From Candidatus Latescibacterota bacterium (lineage in GTDB: Bacteria > Latescibacterota > UBA2968), in contig OZ240241.1 in NCBI GenBank assembly GCA_965198115.1, positions 6,656,001-6,720,000 of the forward strand: a stretch of 64,000 bases of DNA, in the 5' to 3' direction. The position numbers and the translations under genes were made by a program. Position 1 is the first letter of the stretch. The number at the start of each line of letters is the position of its first letter. The notes beneath the pieces were generated by a model. It did not search any database and had not been told where the DNA came from. It was given only the letters and a program-made list of their open reading frames with translations. Shown here one piece after another: positions 30,589 through 39,662 of the stretch.

Positions 30589-30737
30589 GTCGTCTCCCGG
30601 ATGAACTGCGATCAAAGCGGGTGGTAAGATAAGAAAATGGCCGTGCCTCGCCAGACGTGTTCGGTCTTGCGGGGCGTGACTTTGTTATATTGGACCCTTG
30701 CACAGAGCAGAAACGGAACCTTTATGGAGGGCTTCCC

Positions 30738-32885
30738 GTGCGGTTTCATAGCCGGGTTTGGCCAATCCTGTCGGCCTGTCTGCTAGCGGCACCCGATGTC
30801 GCACAAGGCGAGACGATACGGCTGATCCACGGAAACGATACCTTCGGGCATCTGAGTCTGGACGATGGGAGTCCATCGTTTCGACTCGCTCGACGCGTCT
30901 CCGCGATCAGGGCGCACTCTGCGGTTCATCCTGCCGTCGTCGTGAGCGCAGGCAACGAGCTGGGGCCGGGGACGCTTTCTGCGTGGGACAAGGGAGCGAC
31001 GATGGTTGGCACGCTGCGACGGGTCGGCACTTCCGCGCTCGTGCCCGGACCCAGGGAGTTCGACTACGGGCTGGACATCCTGACAACCCGCGTGACCGAG
31101 GGAGGCTTCAGCCTGCTCGCCGCCAACCTGGAAGGCGTCGACGCTCAGGCTTACTTGTCGGTGGAGATGAGCGGTGTGCAGGTCGGCCTGATCGGGGTCG
31201 TTTCATCCGGGCTGCTCGACAGGCTGGGATCGGATGTCGCGAACGCTCTGACGGTGACTGATCCATCCGAAGCCATCGCGTCGACCGTGCCGATTCTGCA
31301 AGGCTTCGGTGTGGATGTGATCGTCGTGATCGCCCAGGCGACCGAATCGGAGGCCATCGCCCTTGCGCACGCCCATACCGGAGTGGACCTGGTTGCTTAC
31401 GGCGGCCAGTCGGAACGGGAGGACGACGAGGCAAAACCGACGCTGATCCAGCTGGCCAATGGTGTCCGTCTGGTGACAACACCTCCTGGTGGCCGTCACG
31501 TGGGCGTGGTTGACGTGAGCGTGGAGGCGAGGGGCGACCGCTACGCGATGATCGATGTGGACGCGTCTCTTGCGGAGACGACGATTCACGCACCCGATCC
31601 CGAGACGGAGGCCCAGATCAAAGGCCTGGCGAGACGCTACCTGACCGAGAGCGGATCACTTTTGGGTCAGATCGAGGGAAACTCACGCGACGAGCACGCT
31701 CGAGCGATCGCCAATCTGATGCGGCTCCACACCGAGACGGAGGTCGGCATCGTCTCGCGAGGTTCTTTCACGTCGGTGGCGGCTCCGGCAGGGTTCTACC
31801 GAAGCGATCTCGACTGGCTGATCCGATACGACGACGGGCTGACGAAACTGGAGTTGACCGGCGGTCAGCTGAGACGCGTGGTCGACATCAGTCAGGGACG
31901 GCGAGACTCCGATACGGGTCTAATCTTCGCCGGGCTCGATCCGCACGATCGCACGATCAATGGACGTCCGATTCAGGGGAAGGAGCGTTACCGGGTCGTC
32001 ACGGTCCGTCGTCTCGCAGAGGGTCGGGACGGTTACCCGGTTCTCAGCCAGGGCGCATCGATTCAGAACACGAATATCTCCCTGCGCTCGCTCACGGCAG
32101 CGGGCCTCCAGGCGTGGGGCAAGTTGTCTTCGACGACGTTCAACGAGCTGGAGGTCAAATCGGTCTGGCGGTCGACGCTTTCGATCGAGGGGAGCTTCAA
32201 CCGGAATTATGTGGACTCGACGACGGCTGTCTATCGCGATGCGGGCGAAAGTGTATCGTTTTTGCGTGGAGAGACCAGCTTTGCGTGGAAGGAGACGATG
32301 CGGCATCAGCTGGCTTACGAGACGTCTGGGTCCGTCACGACGCTCGATACGAGGAGCGATTTTGGTCGTGTCGGCGGCGAAACGTCGTCGGATCAGCTGG
32401 ATACGGAGCTGAGCCACCGGTGGCGGCTTCAGAGGATACAGGCCGATCCATTCGTTTCGACCGGATTCCGAACGGGGTTCACAGAGGGACGGCCGTATCA
32501 GGTCAGAGGATTGGCGGGCTTCCAACGAAGGTTCCTAAAGCGGTGGGTGGCCGAGTTCGCCGCACGCGGCCAACGCGACTTCAACGAGGATCAGAGCGAC
32601 TACGGTGCGGAGATTACATTGAACTATCAGTTGCGACTGAAACAGGGCGGACGTTTTCGGTCGAAGGTGGAGAGCTTCTTCGGTTTTTCGGACCGAAAAG
32701 TCATCGCGATCGAGAACTACAACACATTGGCGTTCCCGCTGGCCGGAGAGCTCAGCCTGACGGTTCGACAGAACAACTTCATTTATCGGGTCGATAAGAT
32801 TCGGGGCGTTTCGGTCGACGGCGTCGCCGTGCGGAGCGAGCTGACGATCGGGCTTGCCTATGGATTGGATTGGAAGTGGATATAG
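30738..32885 (+). CDS. Exported 5'-nucleotidase-fold protein with degenerate active site and C-terminal outer-membrane beta-barrel
   Basis: Signal-like N-terminus; IHGNDTFG, SAGNE, PGPREFDYG, LAANL, GGQSE; 5'-nucleotidase C-domain; amphipathic strands from ~32160 ending GLAYGLDWKWI. Confidence 0.7.
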   Translation: MRFHSRVWPILSACLLAAPDVAQGETIRLIHGNDTFGHLSLDDGSPSFRLARRVSAIRAHSAVHPAVVVSAGNELGPGTLSAWDKGATMVGTLRRVGTSALVPGPREFDYGLDILTTRVTEGGFSLLAANLEGVDAQAYLSVEMSGVQVGLIGVVSSGLLDRLGSDVANALTVTDPSEAIASTVPILQGFGVDVIVVIAQATESEAIALAHAHTGVDLVAYGGQSEREDDEAKPTLIQLANGVRLVTTPPGGRHVGVVDVSVEARGDRYAMIDVDASLAETTIHAPDPETEAQIKGLARRYLTESGSLLGQIEGNSRDEHARAIANLMRLHTETEVGIVSRGSFTSVAAPAGFYRSDLDWLIRYDDGLTKLELTGGQLRRVVDISQGRRDSDTGLIFAGLDPHDRTINGRPIQGKERYRVVTVRRLAEGRDGYPVLSQGASIQNTNISLRSLTAAGLQAWGKLSSTTFNELEVKSVWRSTLSIEGSFNRNYVDSTTAVYRDAGESVSFLRGETSFAWKETMRHQLAYETSGSVTTLDTRSDFGRVGGETSSDQLDTELSHRWRLQRIQADPFVSTGFRTGFTEGRPYQVRGLAGFQRRFLKRWVAEFAARGQRDFNEDQSDYGAEITLNYQLRLKQGGRFRSKVESFFGFSDRKVIAIENYNTLAFPLAGELSLTVRQNNFIYRVDKIRGVSVDGVAVRSELTIGLAYGLDWKWI

Positions 32886-33103: not shown

Positions 33104-33616
33104 TCAGCTCTTCTGCCGCCATATCTCCCAAACGAGGTGGGAGAGTTCGGGGACGATGAGCTTTTCCATTGCGAGGCGGACGGCGCCCGACGATCCGGGC
33201 ATGCAGAAGATCATGGTATCCCTGTAGACACCGGCGACGGCTCTTGAGAGCATTGCGCCGGAACCGATGTCGTCCCAGCTGAGGAAGCGGAAGACTTCAC
33301 CGAATCCGTCGAGGCGTTTTTCGAGCAGGGAGGTGACGGCCTCGTAAGTCGTGTCTCTCGCCGCGATACCGGTGCCTCCGTTCGTCAGGATGACGTGGCA
33401 GTCGCCATCTTCTGCGATTTTCCGAATCAACGCCCGAATCTCGTCCGCCTCGTCCTTCACCACCGCATAGTGGCCGACGCTGTGGCCCCCATCTTCCAGC
33501 AACTCGTGGATGATTTTACCGCTTTTATCGTCGGCTTCGGTTCGCGTGTCGCTGATGGTCAGGATCGCACAGGTGACGGCATCCTTGGCCTGGGCGACGT
33601 GGTCTTCATACGGCAT
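33104..33616 (-). CDS. moaB: Molybdenum cofactor biosynthesis protein B (MoaB/MogA)
   Basis: LTISDTR..DKSG, TNGGTGIAARDTTYEA, GFGEVFR, AMLSRA, MPGSSGAV. Confidence 0.9.
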   Translation of the reverse strand: MPYEDHVAQAKDAVTCAILTISDTRTEADDKSGKIIHELLEDGGHSVGHYAVVKDEADEIRALIRKIAEDGDCHVILTNGGTGIAARDTTYEAVTSLLEKRLDGFGEVFRFLSWDDIGSGAMLSRAVAGVYRDTMIFCMPGSSGAVRLAMEKLIVPELSHLVWEIWRQKS

Positions 33617-33697
33617 GAATGCTCCTTCCGGGGTGATAGAGTTCGGCTGCAGAGGCGAAACTTACGCAAAGTGGCGGTGAGTGAAGAAAAAAAGTGC

Positions 33698-33725
33698 TCA
33701 AGTTTGGGGCGACCGAGGTCGATAA
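33698..33725 (+). promoter_or_regulatory. Putative sigma28 (FliA/SigD) promoter
   Basis: TCAAGTTT-N12-GTCGATAA versus consensus TAAAGTTT-N11-GCCGATAA. Confidence 0.55.
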
Positions 33726-33763
33726 ATCAGAATAGGAGGAATCCCTCGAACAGGAACGTTCCC

Positions 33764-34960
33764 TTGCAGATTATTCCCCTATCAACGTCCCCATCGCCGG
33801 TCGGTGTTAGTTCTACTGGAGATTCGCGTCCGACTGTTCCTCTGCTGAACGAGGAACGGGACACGGTCGAGCTATCGAGCGAGCGACCGCCCCCGTTGGG
33901 GCAGGCGGAAGCGCTTCCGGGACAGGGCGAATCACCAAAAGTCATCGGTCTCTGTCCTGACTGTGGGCGAATTCACGCGTTGAGCGTCGATGCAGGCGGG
34001 GGATCCGCCTCTCCAGTTCAGACCGCATCTCCCCTGGTGGAGAACGCGCCAAAGGGTGTGGATGCCGGGACACCGGGCGAGTCGCCGCTTCCGGCAGGGT
34101 CGATCGATCCTCACTCCGCCGCCGGCCAGAGTCACGACGAAGCGGTGGGTGAAGAAGAGACGGATTCGGAGGCTGGCGCAGCCGAGGCTTCGGAGAAGCG
34201 GAGTCTGACAGGAGAGGAGCTGACCGACGAACAACGTCAGGAAGTCGAGCGGCTGAAAGAGCGGGATCGCGAGGTCCGTGCCCACGAGCAGGCACACGTC
34301 GCCGCCGGCGGCCAATACGTGGGCGGAGGCGTGCAGTTCGAGTACGAAACGGGACCGAATGGTCGTCGCTATGCCGTGGGGGGCGAAGTGTCAATCGACT
34401 CTTCGCCGGTTTCGGGGGATCCGCAGAAGACGATCCAGAAGGCCCAACAGATTCGGCGAGCGGCGATGGCACCGGCCGAGCCGTCGGGTGCGGACCATCG
34501 CGCTGCTGCTTCGGCTTCGCAGATGGAAGCCAAGGCTCGGCAGGAAGTGATCGAGGAACGGATGGATGGAGGCGACAGTTCGGATGACGCCACAGAAGCG
34601 GCGATCGGAGACGTGCTGGATGAGGGGATGGACGTCGAGGCCGAAACGCCCTCATCGGGAACGGATTCGGATGCCAGCCTCCCGAACGGCGCGTTGGATG
34701 TGAACGATGTGACCGGGACTACGGCTGTGGTCGAGGGGTCGGATATGGATGAGGGGTCGGGTGTTGAAGGATCGATCAGCTCTCCGGCGTTCGATGTGGT
34801 TACGACGGGTGACGATGAGGCGTCCGAGCAGGCTCAGGCTCCTTCACCGATGGATGTTCCCGAGATCGACGGGGCGAGCATCGTTCCGAGTGTCGTGACG
34901 CTGTCTTACGCCGATCAGGCCGCGTCCCCGGCAGGTTCTTTCGTGGATCTTTATCGCTGA
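33764..34960 (+). CDS. SprA-related family protein
   Basis: LKERDREVRAHEQAHVAAGG..YETGPNGRRYAVGGEVSID..AAMAPAEPSGAD core; acidic low-complexity flanks; start uncertain. Confidence 0.85.
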   Translation: MQIIPLSTSPSPVGVSSTGDSRPTVPLLNEERDTVELSSERPPPLGQAEALPGQGESPKVIGLCPDCGRIHALSVDAGGGSASPVQTASPLVENAPKGVDAGTPGESPLPAGSIDPHSAAGQSHDEAVGEEETDSEAGAAEASEKRSLTGEELTDEQRQEVERLKERDREVRAHEQAHVAAGGQYVGGGVQFEYETGPNGRRYAVGGEVSIDSSPVSGDPQKTIQKAQQIRRAAMAPAEPSGADHRAAASASQMEAKARQEVIEERMDGGDSSDDATEAAIGDVLDEGMDVEAETPSSGTDSDASLPNGALDVNDVTGTTAVVEGSDMDEGSGVEGSISSPAFDVVTTGDDEASEQAQAPSPMDVPEIDGASIVPSVVTLSYADQAASPAGSFVDLYR

Positions 34961-35050: not shown

Positions 35051-35821
35051 TCAGGACAGTCCCATCGCCTGTAGATTCTTCAGGCTGATTTCGAGGCTTT
35101 CGAAGGGATCGCGCTGACATCGGTCCTGCTCGACGATATACCATCGTGTGCCGGCCTCACGACAGGCTTCGAGGATGGCGGGCCAGTTGAGATTGCCCTC
35201 GCCGACTTCGGCGAACAGTTGCTCGCGACCCTGCATCGTCAGGTCTTTGACGTGAACGAGGTCGGCGCGTCCCCTGGCCTTGCGGATCCAGGCCGCGGGA
35301 TCCCCGCCTCCGTGCTGAATCCAGTAGACGTCGATTTCGAACTGAAAGACCTCGGGATCGGATTCTTCGAACAGGATCTGTAGTGCCGTGCGATCTCCGA
35401 AGCGTTCGAGTTCGAAGCTGTGGTTGTGATAGCCGAACGTCAGCCCTGCGTCGGACAATTTCCTCGCGACCTCCGTGGCTTCGCGAGCAAACCGTGTGAA
35501 GCCCGCTTCCCCATCCTCGCGGTAGGGTTGGGGTAAGCTTCCGATGGCCACGTATCGACAGTCCCAGAGTCGGTGCTCGTCGATGACGGCGTCGGTTTCG
35601 TCTCGCAGCCGATCGTAGGCGACGTGCGTGGCGCAGATGGTGAGGCCCTCGCCGTCGGTCACGGCCTTGAGTTCGGCCGGCTCGATCGGTCCGAACCCCG
35701 AGCACTGGACCGATCGGTAGCCCATCTGTCCGACCCGTCTGAGGGTCGTCGCGATTTCGGCCGGGGTGTTCGTAAAGTCGCGGACCGTGTAGAGTTGGGC
35801 CGCGATCGTGGTCTCTGGCAT
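35051..35821 (-). CDS. Sugar phosphate isomerase/epimerase (xylose isomerase-like TIM barrel)
   Basis: QLYTVRD, YHNHSFE, EIDVYW, HVKD, VEQD. Confidence 0.9.
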   Translation of the reverse strand: MPETTIAAQLYTVRDFTNTPAEIATTLRRVGQMGYRSVQCSGFGPIEPAELKAVTDGEGLTICATHVAYDRLRDETDAVIDEHRLWDCRYVAIGSLPQPYREDGEAGFTRFAREATEVARKLSDAGLTFGYHNHSFELERFGDRTALQILFEESDPEVFQFEIDVYWIQHGGGDPAAWIRKARGRADLVHVKDLTMQGREQLFAEVGEGNLNWPAILEACREAGTRWYIVEQDRCQRDPFESLEISLKNLQAMGLS

Positions 35822-35998
35822 CTGTCTCCTCCACGTTCTCGGGGGTCGCGACAACATACTACCCGCCCCCGACGGGGACCAGCGGATTGTGGTCGATTTT
35901 CGTCGCCTTTCATCTGGCCTTTTCCAGACCGCGCCTATATTTTAGGCTCACATTCGCCGGGCACTCAGAGAAGACACGAAGAGGGGCAGGAGGAACTG

Positions 35999-38245
35999 AT
36001 GCGGAACGCACAGCTGGTCATTTCTGGCCAGAGCCAGCGCAACGAGGATCTTGTGGCAAATTCACGCTACATGCGGGAGTCGGTCGAATCGCAGGTGTTG
36101 GGATTCTCGCTGGATCTGCGGAGGGACAGCGGGTTGACGAGCGACGAGGCTGCTGTGATGACGGCGCTCGAAAAATCGGCCGCACGCACCGCCCTGGCTT
36201 CGCTCGCGTCGCTGGCCGAGATCGGCGAGCTCGATCATCTCGGTGGCGGTCTGGAGCTGATTCCGACCCTCAATATGACGCTCGCCGTTGCCGACAACGA
36301 CGCCATCCACTACACGATCGAACACGCGCACACGAGCATCGGTTATTTCTCGACGCTGGCGAGCTGGGGCTTCATCGACCAGGACCTGGTCGTCGACGGG
36401 TTTCGACGGGGATTGGATATCACGGGCCACGTATCGTGGGTTCCCGGTGGCACACAGCTCAGCGGGGGACGCCTGGGTGTGATGGTCCCCGTAGCCGTCG
36501 GTCAAGCGCTGGGTCTGAGGGCCCATCGCGGGGACGACGCACTCGTCATTTGCCATCTCGGCGATGCGGGATGGCTGTCGGGTCAGGCGTTGAACGGCTT
36601 CCTGGGTGCAGGCGTACACGATGCACCGATCGTGTTCGTGATGAATCGGAACGGGATCCAGCTGTCGGGTCCGACGTCCAGTATCTTGGATCGCGACCCT
36701 CGCGAAATCGTGCAAGCGATGGGTGTCGAGGTGCTTGAAATTCCGTCGTTGCACGACGTGGGCGCCCTGTTCGATGCCTACAGGGAGGCTTCGAAACACG
36801 CCCGCGTGGGTCGTCCGACAATGATCTATCCAGTCGGGCTCCGTTCGACGGAGGAATCGACGGTCACGCTCGCGACGTTCGGTGAGATCTACGGCGTGAC
36901 GGACGAACTGTCGGCCTTCTCCGAACAACACAAGGTTTCGATGGGGACGGAGGTCTGGATCCCCGGCTCGTTGATGAGCTATCGCGATACGGGGCCGATG
37001 TTCGAGTGTCTGTTCTACGTGAATGGGCTCGAGGGGGGCGAAGGCCATCACGACGGGCATATGAAGGATCGTGACTTAGACACGGTGCTGGCGAACCCGA
37101 TGCTGTCCGAAAACGGCGAGGCGAAGGCGATCGCGAAGGTGGGCAACGGGAACCTTCGTGTGACGCAGGCGAGGCCGTCGCCAGGATCACCGAACTTGGT
37201 GCTGGACGGTCGGCTGAAATCGATCGAATTGCCGGCGGTGGGGGAACAGGTGTCCGCACGAAACGGGACGCAGCTGGCCTACGCGACGATCGCCGAAGCC
37301 TTTCCGGATCAGTTTTTCACGGTGTCGTGCGATTTGGACCCATCGACCAAGCTGGACAAGGCGAAAGCGGTCGTGGATGCCAACCACAAGTTCGAGATGG
37401 GGATTACGGAGCAGGCTTCGTCTTTGTTGGCAAACGGCATCGCTCTCAGTTCATCAGGACCGCAGCTCGTCGTTTTTGCGACGTTCGCCGCTTTCTTCGA
37501 GGGGATCGCACGGGAGGGGTTCGAGTTGTGGCGCTACCAACGGAACCTGACAGGTGCGAATGAAGGTGTGAACGTGGCGATGCACCTTTCGCACGTCGGT
37601 GCGTGTACGGGGCGCGATCACTTTTCGGGTTGGAGTCTGGATTGGATCACGTTGGCGATGGGCTACCTGCCTTATCTGCACCGGTTTTATGCACCGTCGG
37701 ACGCGCGGTCCGCATTTGTGGCCGCGTGCGATATGGCCGCTCACTATGGAGGTCACATCATCGGGATTCCACGCGACAACCTGCCCGTACTCGGCAAGCA
37801 GGATGGTTCAGGTCCGTTGTGGGGGGCTGATTCGGTCTGGGAAGCGGTTACGATGTTCAGAACCTACGAGGGCGCGAAGAAGGCGATTCTGGCGATGGGT
37901 GCGCCGACGTATCTGGCGGGCGAAGCGGCTGAGGCGTGCGAGGGAAAGGACCCGGTCGATGTTCACGTCGTGAACGGGTTGCCACTCGAGGATGGGGCGC
38001 TCAATGTTCTCGTCGAGCGCTATCCCGGTGGGCTGGTGACGATCGAAGACGGGCTGATCGGTCACCCGGGCGTGGGGCTCAGGGGGTTCGCCTCACTCGT
38101 GCAGTCTACGGCAGCAGGGCGTGTTCCGCTCGCGCACGTGGGCATCGTCGATCCGACAGTCGCGCCATCGGAAGGTCGTCTTCCGACGTGGGGGCATTTC
38201 GGCATCACGACGGATGCGTTGATCGAAGCTGTCGAGTCACTTTAG
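35999..38245 (+). CDS. Divergent transketolase-family TPP enzyme
   Basis: DHLGGGL, HLGDAG..NRN TPP motif, MGITEQ, ATFAAF, SHVG..GRDH, TIED. Confidence 0.75.
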   Translation: MRNAQLVISGQSQRNEDLVANSRYMRESVESQVLGFSLDLRRDSGLTSDEAAVMTALEKSAARTALASLASLAEIGELDHLGGGLELIPTLNMTLAVADNDAIHYTIEHAHTSIGYFSTLASWGFIDQDLVVDGFRRGLDITGHVSWVPGGTQLSGGRLGVMVPVAVGQALGLRAHRGDDALVICHLGDAGWLSGQALNGFLGAGVHDAPIVFVMNRNGIQLSGPTSSILDRDPREIVQAMGVEVLEIPSLHDVGALFDAYREASKHARVGRPTMIYPVGLRSTEESTVTLATFGEIYGVTDELSAFSEQHKVSMGTEVWIPGSLMSYRDTGPMFECLFYVNGLEGGEGHHDGHMKDRDLDTVLANPMLSENGEAKAIAKVGNGNLRVTQARPSPGSPNLVLDGRLKSIELPAVGEQVSARNGTQLAYATIAEAFPDQFFTVSCDLDPSTKLDKAKAVVDANHKFEMGITEQASSLLANGIALSSSGPQLVVFATFAAFFEGIAREGFELWRYQRNLTGANEGVNVAMHLSHVGACTGRDHFSGWSLDWITLAMGYLPYLHRFYAPSDARSAFVAACDMAAHYGGHIIGIPRDNLPVLGKQDGSGPLWGADSVWEAVTMFRTYEGAKKAILAMGAPTYLAGEAAEACEGKDPVDVHVVNGLPLEDGALNVLVERYPGGLVTIEDGLIGHPGVGLRGFASLVQSTAAGRVPLAHVGIVDPTVAPSEGRLPTWGHFGITTDALIEAVESL

Positions 38246-38354: not shown

Positions 38355-39662
38355 TCAGAAGATTCGATACTCCAGGGCAGTGGAGAGCGACATCTCCCAC
38401 GGTTTGGATACTCCCCTCAGTACATTCGTTCCCGTTGTGACGTCCGTGTTAACTTCGTTCACTTTTGACTTGTCCAGGCTGAATGTCATTGTGAGTCCAA
38501 TCTTGTTCTCGACGAAGAAGCTGAAGCTGTTTGAAATGCTGTTGCTGTGAGTGGCCGGAATGTCCCGAAAGACCATCTCTTCCGGCTGCTGTGTATCCGG
38601 GTTGATCGAATCCAAGGTCACCGATTCGCTTTTCTCCGAGCTGAACAGGTAAACCAGCTTGTAACTGATTCTGTTGGTGATTTCATAGATGAAGTCCGTC
38701 TTCATCTGTATGTCGTATCGCTGCCCAAATGCTGATGACAGCGGCGTATTCACACCGAAGTCCGTGTTGATCTGTGTGCTCCAGCTGATCGGCCTGGAAT
38801 ACCGGACTCCGAATGAGAAGGCGGGGTCATCGCGATCCTGTCCACGCAGAGGAGTCAACGCCTCCATGCGAACACCGACGGAGATGTCCCACCCATAGAA
38901 GCGTTCGTTGATCCGCTCTATTTCGAGAACCTCTTGCATGCGCAGGACACCGATTGCACCGATGGTCCCAATGACCTCTCCAGATTTCTGAAGTTCGTTC
39001 TGCATATCTTCATACCAGTAGTTCTTGTAGCGATCACCATAGAGCTTCTCGTATTCGTCCTCCTTTTCGATGATGTGACCCAACTCGATTATCGTCTCCT
39101 TCGGAAGACGCTCTGCGACGATGCCTTCCCTCAGGAGGAAGTCTTCGATCCGAACAGCTTTACGAAGGGCCGTCGCGTTGATAAACCGCCCGAATCCCAG
39201 GCCTGAGGTGACGTCGACACCTGGGCGGTCGAAGTCCGTATCGAGATCGGCTTCCGTTTCCCCGAAGAAGAAGAAGCTTCCTTCGTCGCGGTGATACTTT
39301 TTAACTCTGCTTACCAAGTTGGCGTCCGCAGAGCCAACCAGCTGGTCCTGTGCAGTGTCTCTTCTGAATTTGCCCGACCCCCGAAGGTCGATGGAGTATG
39401 CAAAGGGGAGCGACTCGTAGAATTTCTTGTATACGATCGCCATCGTTCCCGTTTGAGAGACGATCGAATCGCCCTTCGATTGCATTTCGAGGGTCAGCGC
39501 GTCGATGCGCAGGTTGTCTGCACGACTGACCGGAACGCTGTAATCCTTGACAGAGACATTTTGAGCCACGGTCTCGCCGTTTGCGATGAGACCGACCAAG
39601 GCCACCGGAGGCCCCCACTTGCGGAGCGCCCCCCATAGCCGCTCGCTGATCCGGTGTCTCAT
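38355..39662 (-). CDS. Putative outer-membrane beta-barrel protein
   Basis: Signal-like N-terminus, alternating-strand pattern with central helical insertion, C-terminal LEYRIF. Confidence 0.6.
   Translation of the reverse strand: MRHRISERLWGALRKWGPPVALVGLIANGETVAQNVSVKDYSVPVSRADNLRIDALTLEMQSKGDSIVSQTGTMAIVYKKFYESLPFAYSIDLRGSGKFRRDTAQDQLVGSADANLVSRVKKYHRDEGSFFFFGETEADLDTDFDRPGVDVTSGLGFGRFINATALRKAVRIEDFLLREGIVAERLPKETIIELGHIIEKEDEYEKLYGDRYKNYWYEDMQNELQKSGEVIGTIGAIGVLRMQEVLEIERINERFYGWDISVGVRMEALTPLRGQDRDDPAFSFGVRYSRPISWSTQINTDFGVNTPLSSAFGQRYDIQMKTDFIYEITNRISYKLVYLFSSEKSESVTLDSINPDTQQPEEMVFRDIPATHSNSISNSFSFFVENKIGLTMTFSLDKSKVNEVNTDVTTGTNVLRGVSKPWEMSLSTALEYRIF

Follow-up and report, generated by a model that had tools for sequence, protein, structure and literature searches.

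Our results support a model in which one gene of a Latescibacterota bacterium encodes a catalytically dead 5′-nucleotidase clamshell joined to a predicted 12-strand outer-membrane β-barrel. We favor, at a probability of roughly 0.4, a reading in which the protein is a lid that binds anions in the periplasm without catalysis and sits on a small-solute pore. The gene lies in a 64,000-nucleotide stretch of genomic DNA, hereafter the window, and an initial annotation made from the letters alone had proposed a dead nucleotidase fold and a barrel in one intact frame; the open reading frame, the Pfam scan, the AlphaFold2 model and our reading of the motifs all agree with that proposal. The same annotation did not recognize the architecture as described, and we likewise found no published account of a nucleotidase-barrel fusion in the literature searched, which excludes most subscription papers. 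The architecture appears to be real, is widespread in Latescibacterota and can be tested directly.

The whole gene spans 30738..32885 (+) and forms an intact frame of 715 amino acids that begins with GTG, 7 nt downstream of a ribosome-binding-like GGAGG recognized by its sequence (30726..30730, +), and ends in AYGLDWKWI. The product opens with a signal-peptide-like stretch that was read by eye and is similar in homologues (residues ~1–23; 30738..30806, +), followed by a metallophosphoesterase-like domain whose metal site is gone (residues 24–300; 30807..31637, +), a 5′-nucleotidase C-terminal domain with linker and an altered cleft (residues 301–470; 31638..32147, +) and the predicted 12-stranded, DUF481/DUF3078-like outer-membrane barrel (strands at residues 476–714; 32148..32882, +). 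Comparison with two congeneric copies, for which dS is near saturation, gave dN/dS values for the three domains of about 0.16, 0.11 and 0.07 (L001) and of 0.10, 0.15 and 0.08 (L083), a range of ~0.07–0.16 that is lowest in the barrel and indicates that all three are under purifying selection; the earlier statement that the frame stays intact over 700 residues thus stands. Because a 2-oxoacid dehydrogenase-like operon diverges upstream and a MoaB-like gene converges downstream, the gene is probably monocistronic; a promoter and terminator scan gave no signal above chance for it. It is present once in the source genome. Further along the window lie a SprA-related acidic protein (33395–34960, +) and a diverged one-chain transketolase-like protein (35573–38245, +), both of which also accompany loci of this type in a number of related genomes.

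The fold assignment rests on several comparisons. A Pfam scan placed 5_nucleotid_C at residues 322–437 above its cut-off (E = 1.3e-8) and DUF481 at residues 605–678 below it (E = 0.014; 15.9 bits versus a cut-off of 21.1), the best DUF3078 score among relatives was 20.3 against a cut-off of 25, and NCBIfam models of UshA, CpdB and SoxB matched the N-terminal part at scores far below theirs. A full-length AlphaFold2 model built on a 58-sequence alignment (pLDDT 87.9, pTM 0.73) contains 12 consecutive strands at residues 476–714. Residues 22–469 of this model superpose on bacterial and human 5′-nucleotidases with Z-scores of 32–36, among them PDB 2z1a (Z 35.9, rmsd 4.3 over 434 residues). The model and structure searches thus recovered both parts of the proposed fusion, a 5′-nucleotidase clamshell and a 12-strand barrel matching outer-membrane barrels.

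Published 5′-nucleotidases are described as having a dimetal centre, a catalytic His-Asp dyad and a 96-degree domain rotation (PMC8475336). The initial annotation had read nearly every metal and catalytic residue of this copy as replaced, and each motif proved to be as it stated. Motif I retains D34 and has F36 for its His (D34-T-F36; 30837..30845, +), the bridging Asp of motif II is N73 (G-N73-E; 30954..30956, +), the Asn-His of motif III is P105-R106 (G-P105-R106-E; 31050..31055, +), the His of motif IV is Q200 (31335..31337, +) and the HxH of motif V is G223-Q-S225 (G222-G223-Q-S225; 31404..31412, +). Individual residues are assigned the roles known from E. coli UshA. D34 is the sole survivor of eight metal and catalytic residues, or one of seven metal ligands, and the dyad has lost its His to R106 while retaining D109. 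With seven of the eight replaced, the site is most simply read as dead.

How typical is this copy of its family? An initial set of 175 barrel matches was reduced by 23 that were partial or failed an N-domain filter, and the remaining 152, thinned at 90% identity, left 97 non-redundant full-length members for counting. Our controls were 46 relatives that lack a barrel, left from 49 once two family fragments and one cytochrome had been removed; 42 of them retain all eight residues. None of the 97 members has an intact site and the maximum is six of eight, so that a family of homologues with intact ligands, which would have spoken against the initial annotation, was not what we found. A His at its motif I position is found in 1/97 members, the first motif V His in 2/97 and any His within the motif V window in 9/97; the bridging Asp is Asn in 37/97. 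Nevertheless, five residues (Asp, Asp, Asn, His, His) persist as a half-site in 40/97, so the proposal that ligand loss is conserved among homologues holds for two His ligands lost across the family and fails for the rest of the site. Given these 40 relatives, this copy is an unusually eroded member. In 66 thinned sequences, the half-site columns D34, N105, H106 and H200 are 68–82% conserved, whereas polar columns as a whole have a median of 36%; the ancestral form therefore probably kept the half-site.

The loss appears to have been repeated. In a quick tree that left out the catalytic domain and has several long branches, an eroded state of at most two of eight residues occurs in 17 of 66 rows and needs seven changes, at least five of them forced by well-supported branches; the present copy falls inside a group of half-site members (100% support). 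Near-complete erosion has thus, on this tree, recurred five to seven times. The graded series from half-site to dead site, repeated in this way, offers a clean case for studying how pseudoenzymes arise.

The retained half-site could also mean that the family consists of slow or unusual one-metal phosphoesterases with a product channel, as in SpmT, with the present copy a side branch that lost activity and has been retained for the barrel. The 40/97 members with a five-residue half-site conserved well above background would fit such a view, as would the similar AGGG motif V of two barrel-less Latescibacterota proteins (L097 and L104) and the existence of SpmT as a hydrolase-channel fusion family in TCDB (PMC4827864). 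We nonetheless consider it improbable: no conserved substitute ligand occupies the motif I His position (27% conservation, rank 211 of 277), the bridging Asp is so often Asn, and purifying selection continues to act on the dead domain of this copy.

The substrate cleft has changed along with the metal site. We take the nucleobase sandwich of two aromatics and the phosphate-binding Arg to have the roles known from E. coli UshA. Of this set the protein keeps Y364 only: the second stacking aromatic is R425 and the Arg of NxGGIR is T345. Arg at the second aromatic position is shared with a sister clade (12/97 members), whereas both aromatics are common in the family as a whole (88/97 and 72/97). 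Beyond the hinge helix, the median segment length is 19 residues in the family versus 27 in controls, about eight fewer, and the loop so shortened carries further phosphate-binding Arg in canonical enzymes. Other changes are family-wide. The PFxN motif has become RFDD, with Arg363 in 78/97 members (Pro in 42/46 controls) and Asp366 in 76/97, and Arg341 is found in 61/97, so that R341, R363 and D366 of this protein are family-typical. Because R341, R363 and R425 replace parts of the nucleotide pocket, the cleft has been re-tooled with more positive charge and has not simply decayed, and UshA-style base binding by this copy is doubtful.

Modeled alone, the barrel reached a pLDDT of 86.5 and again matched outer-membrane barrels. 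Among 48,161 chains searched with VIA-align, the best match was Tsx (Z 15.5, rmsd 3.2, 202 residues aligned), followed by GalP (Z 14.4), KdgM (Z 14.4) and NanC (Z 14.3); 12-stranded barrels head the list, in keeping with the barrel claimed at the outset. Foldseek also returned outer-membrane barrels, with Tsx ranked 38th. We conclude that the modeled barrel is real and that its likeness to Tsx is not specific. Its first loop is long and conserved (residues 493–513; Y499 is invariant in 53 core sequences) and it bears many conserved polar residues. A crude in/out assignment gave six conserved basic against five acidic inward residues, and the net charge is +4 in this protein with a family median of +10. 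When the clamshell and the barrel were given to complex prediction as separate chains, their docking scored 0.01 (mark 0.32), which weighs neither for nor against contact.

The initial annotation had further suggested nucleotide capture and uptake. The clamshell would bind an uncut nucleotide, a Tsx-like barrel would admit it and, in some lineages, an ATP/ADP-type carrier would receive it. The leading rank of Tsx and the prevalence of both stacking aromatics among relatives lend this some substance, as does a PF03219 (TLC) nucleotide-carrier-like gene that lies downstream at 14/46 loci. The complete source genome, moreover, has only two PF02872 proteins, both degenerate. However, Tsx leads KdgM, GalP and NanC by only ~1 Z at 10% identity, and its Foldseek rank is low. 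The carrier is confined to two related genera, 12 of 30 genomes that have it are without the barrel gene and 37 of 55 barrel genomes, the source genome included, did not match this carrier query. What remains of the suggestion in this copy is Y364, set against R425, T345 and the shorter loop, and a carrier neighbor in two genera, set against its absence beside the gene in the source genome. Nucleotide uptake is therefore, in our judgment, an unlikely function. As an obligate partner, the TLC carrier was rejected on the same two counts of genera and carrier genomes.

The order of signal, passenger and 12-strand C-terminal barrel is also that of an autotransporter, and autotransporter barrels score Z 12–13.7 against this one, raising the idea that the barrel exports the clamshell as a surface adhesin or ligand trap. 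The linker between the clamshell and strand 1 is only ~15 residues long, containing a four-residue helix in the AlphaFold2 secondary structure, and there is no autotransporter Pfam match; surface display seems very improbable. An even-stranded outer-membrane barrel has its N-terminus in the periplasm, and this rule together with the short linker places the clamshell most plausibly on the periplasmic side.

These observations are the ground for the lid reading. The clamshell would hang in the periplasm at the exit of a probable small pore and bind a negatively charged solute, a phosphate ester or carboxylate and not specifically a nucleotide, without cutting it. The solute would pass through the barrel, closure of the clamshell might be coupled to the pore, and the whole could contribute to ion or osmotic balance of the envelope. 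The ancestral one-metal half-site probably helped to grip the ligand, and this lineage would have lost that as well. That the best four barrel matches are all small-solute channels favors the small-pore part of the model, and the ion and osmotic genes beside the gene at 24 of 46 loci, described below, agree with a role in envelope balance. Several observations count against the lid. With six basic against five acidic inward residues and a net charge of only +4, an anion preference of the modeled pore has thin support. Repeated erosion of both pockets would, on sequence grounds, fit a scaffold equally well, and in comparisons of distant members, conservation of the barrel barely exceeds that of the other two domains (0.53 versus 0.50 and 0.49). 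In addition, queries with the MscS, RimK, protease and CASTOR genes of the osmotic block described below gave no match in the source genome, 22 of 46 loci are without the block and the gene has been lost or broken in several g6 genomes.

The family itself is centered on one phylum. A first search returned 44 proteins, mostly full length, at 35–77% identity, and a profile search added members at 20–30%; most of the loci belong to Latescibacterota. Of 168 genomes of that phylum, 55 contain a match to the barrel profile, as do 20 of the 52 of high quality; the match is almost always single and lies in a frame of 700–800 amino acids. Diverged copies occur in the further family f10. Atlas look-alike clusters of 697–906 amino acids (scores 0.96–0.98) have Gemmatimonadota, Thermodesulfobacteriota, Myxococcota and Elusimicrobiota as their commonest taxa and, with their candidate barrels, offer a lead to a wider range. 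Two distant proteins, P0211 and P0227, match the barrel HMM and have eroded motifs. The link of P0227 is tentative: a broader barrel HMM matched it at E < 1e-4, but HHalign against the barrel alignment gave a probability of 0.8% (E = 0.065). A tblastn search with P0227 against plasmids returned no match. A search for longer barrel-bearing proteins found 43 among the matches listed, all also similar to this family, and their annotations named no further domain joined to the barrel. The gene is lost or broken in several g6 genomes; the copies L023:7977-9268 and L024:7890-8270 have large internal deletions, spanning residues ~337–628 (with a frame change) and ~22–631, and retain the downstream carrier gene.

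Other proteins with 5′-nucleotidase domains deserve mention. The second PF02872 protein of the source genome has 443 amino acids, looks secreted, has no barrel and is degenerate at the metal motifs (L114:7199-8527, −; G000:C1, about 1695698–1697041); its operon also contains creatininase, PAC2 and methyltransferase genes, and a syntenic relative in L113 is partly degenerate. No intact UshA-type enzyme was found in the complete source genome. The barrel-less 5′-nucleotidase-like proteins L097:5438-7840 and L104:5883-8549 have a secretion-tail-like C-terminus and a variant metal site resembling the family half-site, with Asp-Gly-Glu in motif I and AGGG in motif V. L100:6590-9256, L103 and L106 carry a lone 5′-nucleotidase C-terminal domain behind unrelated N-terminal parts, which suggests frequent reuse of the domain as a module within Latescibacterota.

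Gene neighborhoods point in more than one direction. Across 46 loci (the window, 25 and 20 others, some of them short), 24 loci in 5 of 17 genus groups have at least one gene of a block comprising MscS and CmpX-like channels, a cation-chloride-type permease, K+ and CASTOR-like channels, a Na/Pi carrier and the trio RimK, PF05618 protease and AstE; 22 loci are without it, and the source genome gave no match to MscS, RimK, PF05618 protease, CASTOR or close carrier queries. PF05618 is above cut-off in 22 genomes, 17 of which also have the barrel gene, at most 12 kb away on the same contig in ten. In four genera the protease and the barrel gene occur together 15 times versus 7.7 expected, a comparison among kin that are not independent. 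Two subfamilies only ~30% identical to each other are flanked by the block, which looks mobile within the phylum. A copy from one genus of family f2 is nested among f4 copies in a quick tree, which suggests transfer of the gene between these families. At L007, L063–L071, L079 and L080 the block also includes an Ion_trans-AAA fusion and an HTH-T2SSE ATPase. No paper on the block was found in the literature searched. A PorV/TonB operon upstream at 9/46 loci in three genera was considered as a partner and is best read as the synteny of one family; no partner gene is constant across the 46 loci. The osmotic association of the family, drawn from neighborhoods and analogy, is circumstantial.

The window also encodes a 434-amino-acid uncharacterized envelope protein with a very weak DUF481 match (38358–39659, −), single-copy here and matched by homologues in 68 of 168 genomes of the phylum. 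Copies ~40% identical to it lie within the ion/RimK block, close to the pseudo-nucleotidase gene, in G047, G051, G073, G075, G085, G122 and G128, and it is a possible partner of the pseudo-nucleotidase-barrel protein.

These neighborhoods bear on the strongest alternative to the lid, that the barrel is an anchor and the dead clamshell a tether or scaffold that holds a periplasmic polymer or partner and so aids osmotic resilience. Both pockets have been independently eroded in five to seven lineages with fold and length retained, the gene sits within the ion/osmotic block at 24/46 loci and a second uncharacterized envelope gene recurs near both locus types. There is also a precedent in RloB, an inactive enzyme domain whose osmotic-stress operon encodes a RimK-like ligase and a RimB-like protease as well (PMC12239564). 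Yet the conserved polar residues and first loop of the barrel exceed the obvious needs of an anchor, new Arg and Asp residues have arisen family-wide in the former substrate cleft and the family has no constant partner gene. We regard the scaffold as possible, with a chance of about one in four by our own reckoning, and the lid as the better account.

The lid reading, if extended, would have wider consequences. Coupling of clamshell motion to the pore would represent a new mode of control over outer-membrane permeability. A bolder and rather unlikely version is that these proteins are ligand-gated outer-membrane channels, a class spread over several phyla, with the dead 5′-nucleotidase as a built-in periplasmic binding protein; its large open-close domain rotation would capture an anionic solute and gate or feed a DUF481/DUF3078-type pore. 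If true, this would be the first functional handle on the DUF481/DUF3078 barrel families. The soluble clamshell is amenable to expression and screening, which offers a direct route to the ligand of a functionally uncharacterized barrel class. Databases name members of the family as ordinary 5′-nucleotidases, and phosphorus-scavenging capacity is therefore probably over-assigned in these genomes.

Finally, our results allow comparison with known systems. UshA, CD73, NadN and CpdB (PF00149 plus PF02872; 2z1a, 3ive, 1ho5) share the two-domain fold of residues 22–469. Like them, the protein appears to be secreted and keeps structural glycines and one stacking aromatic; unlike them, it has lost the dimetal centre, the catalytic His of the dyad and the full nucleobase sandwich, has a shorter Arg loop and an altered cleft, and is fused to a barrel. 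Lipoprotein, wall-anchored and soluble 5′-nucleotidases are described, a barrel-anchored form not being among them in the accessible part of that account (PMC8475336), and for M. xanthus the accessible part of another lists 5′-nucleotidases only among lipoproteins (PMC3222651). DUF481 (YdiY, TC 1.B.75) and DUF3078 proteins share the 12 strands and the ~250-residue size of this barrel; their Atlas clusters are neighbors of it (0.83–0.85) and weak Pfam matches recur in relatives, but those clusters, at 240–260 amino acids, are barrel only, and the present barrel scores under the Pfam cut-offs of these families. The function of YdiY is stated to be unknown in the available portion of one source (bioRxiv 2024.12.09.627556), and that of another gives only indirect genetic hints of transport for such barrels (bioRxiv 2024.12.11.627208). 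LptQ was dropped as a barrel relative, being 8-stranded (bioRxiv 10.64898/2026.10.03.756453). Tsx, KdgM, NanC and GalP are the best structural matches of the barrel (Z 14.3–15.5) but are 8–10% identical to it and have no periplasmic domain like this clamshell.

Further parallels come from proteins with other enzyme folds. In SpmT/Rv0888 (TC 1.B.79) and the EstA autotransporter, as here, a single chain contains both a hydrolase fold and an outer-membrane barrel, but in SpmT the channel comes first and has eight predicted strands, unlike this 12-strand C-terminal barrel. Their enzyme folds are unrelated to 5′-nucleotidase, active and surface-displayed, whereas the hydrolase domain of this copy, with one of eight residues left, is predicted to be inactive. 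RloB, from the Pseudomonas rlo operon, resembles the present protein in having an inactive, predicted periplasm-facing enzyme domain fused to a membrane part; its operon, which is linked to osmotic stress, also contains genes for an ATP-grasp ligase and a RimB-like protease. It differs in its seven-helix (7TM) inner-membrane part and transglutaminase fold, and the likeness is one of analogy, with no homology claimed (PMC12239564). The same work ties hypo-osmotic survival of Pseudomonas to RimB-like proteases that are secreted and to an inactive enzyme domain in the periplasm (PMC12239564). Hydrolase-channel fusions such as SpmT and dead-enzyme envelope proteins such as RloB are thus already known kinds; the nucleotidase-barrel fusion, which on present evidence works like neither UshA nor Tsx, is the undescribed addition to them.
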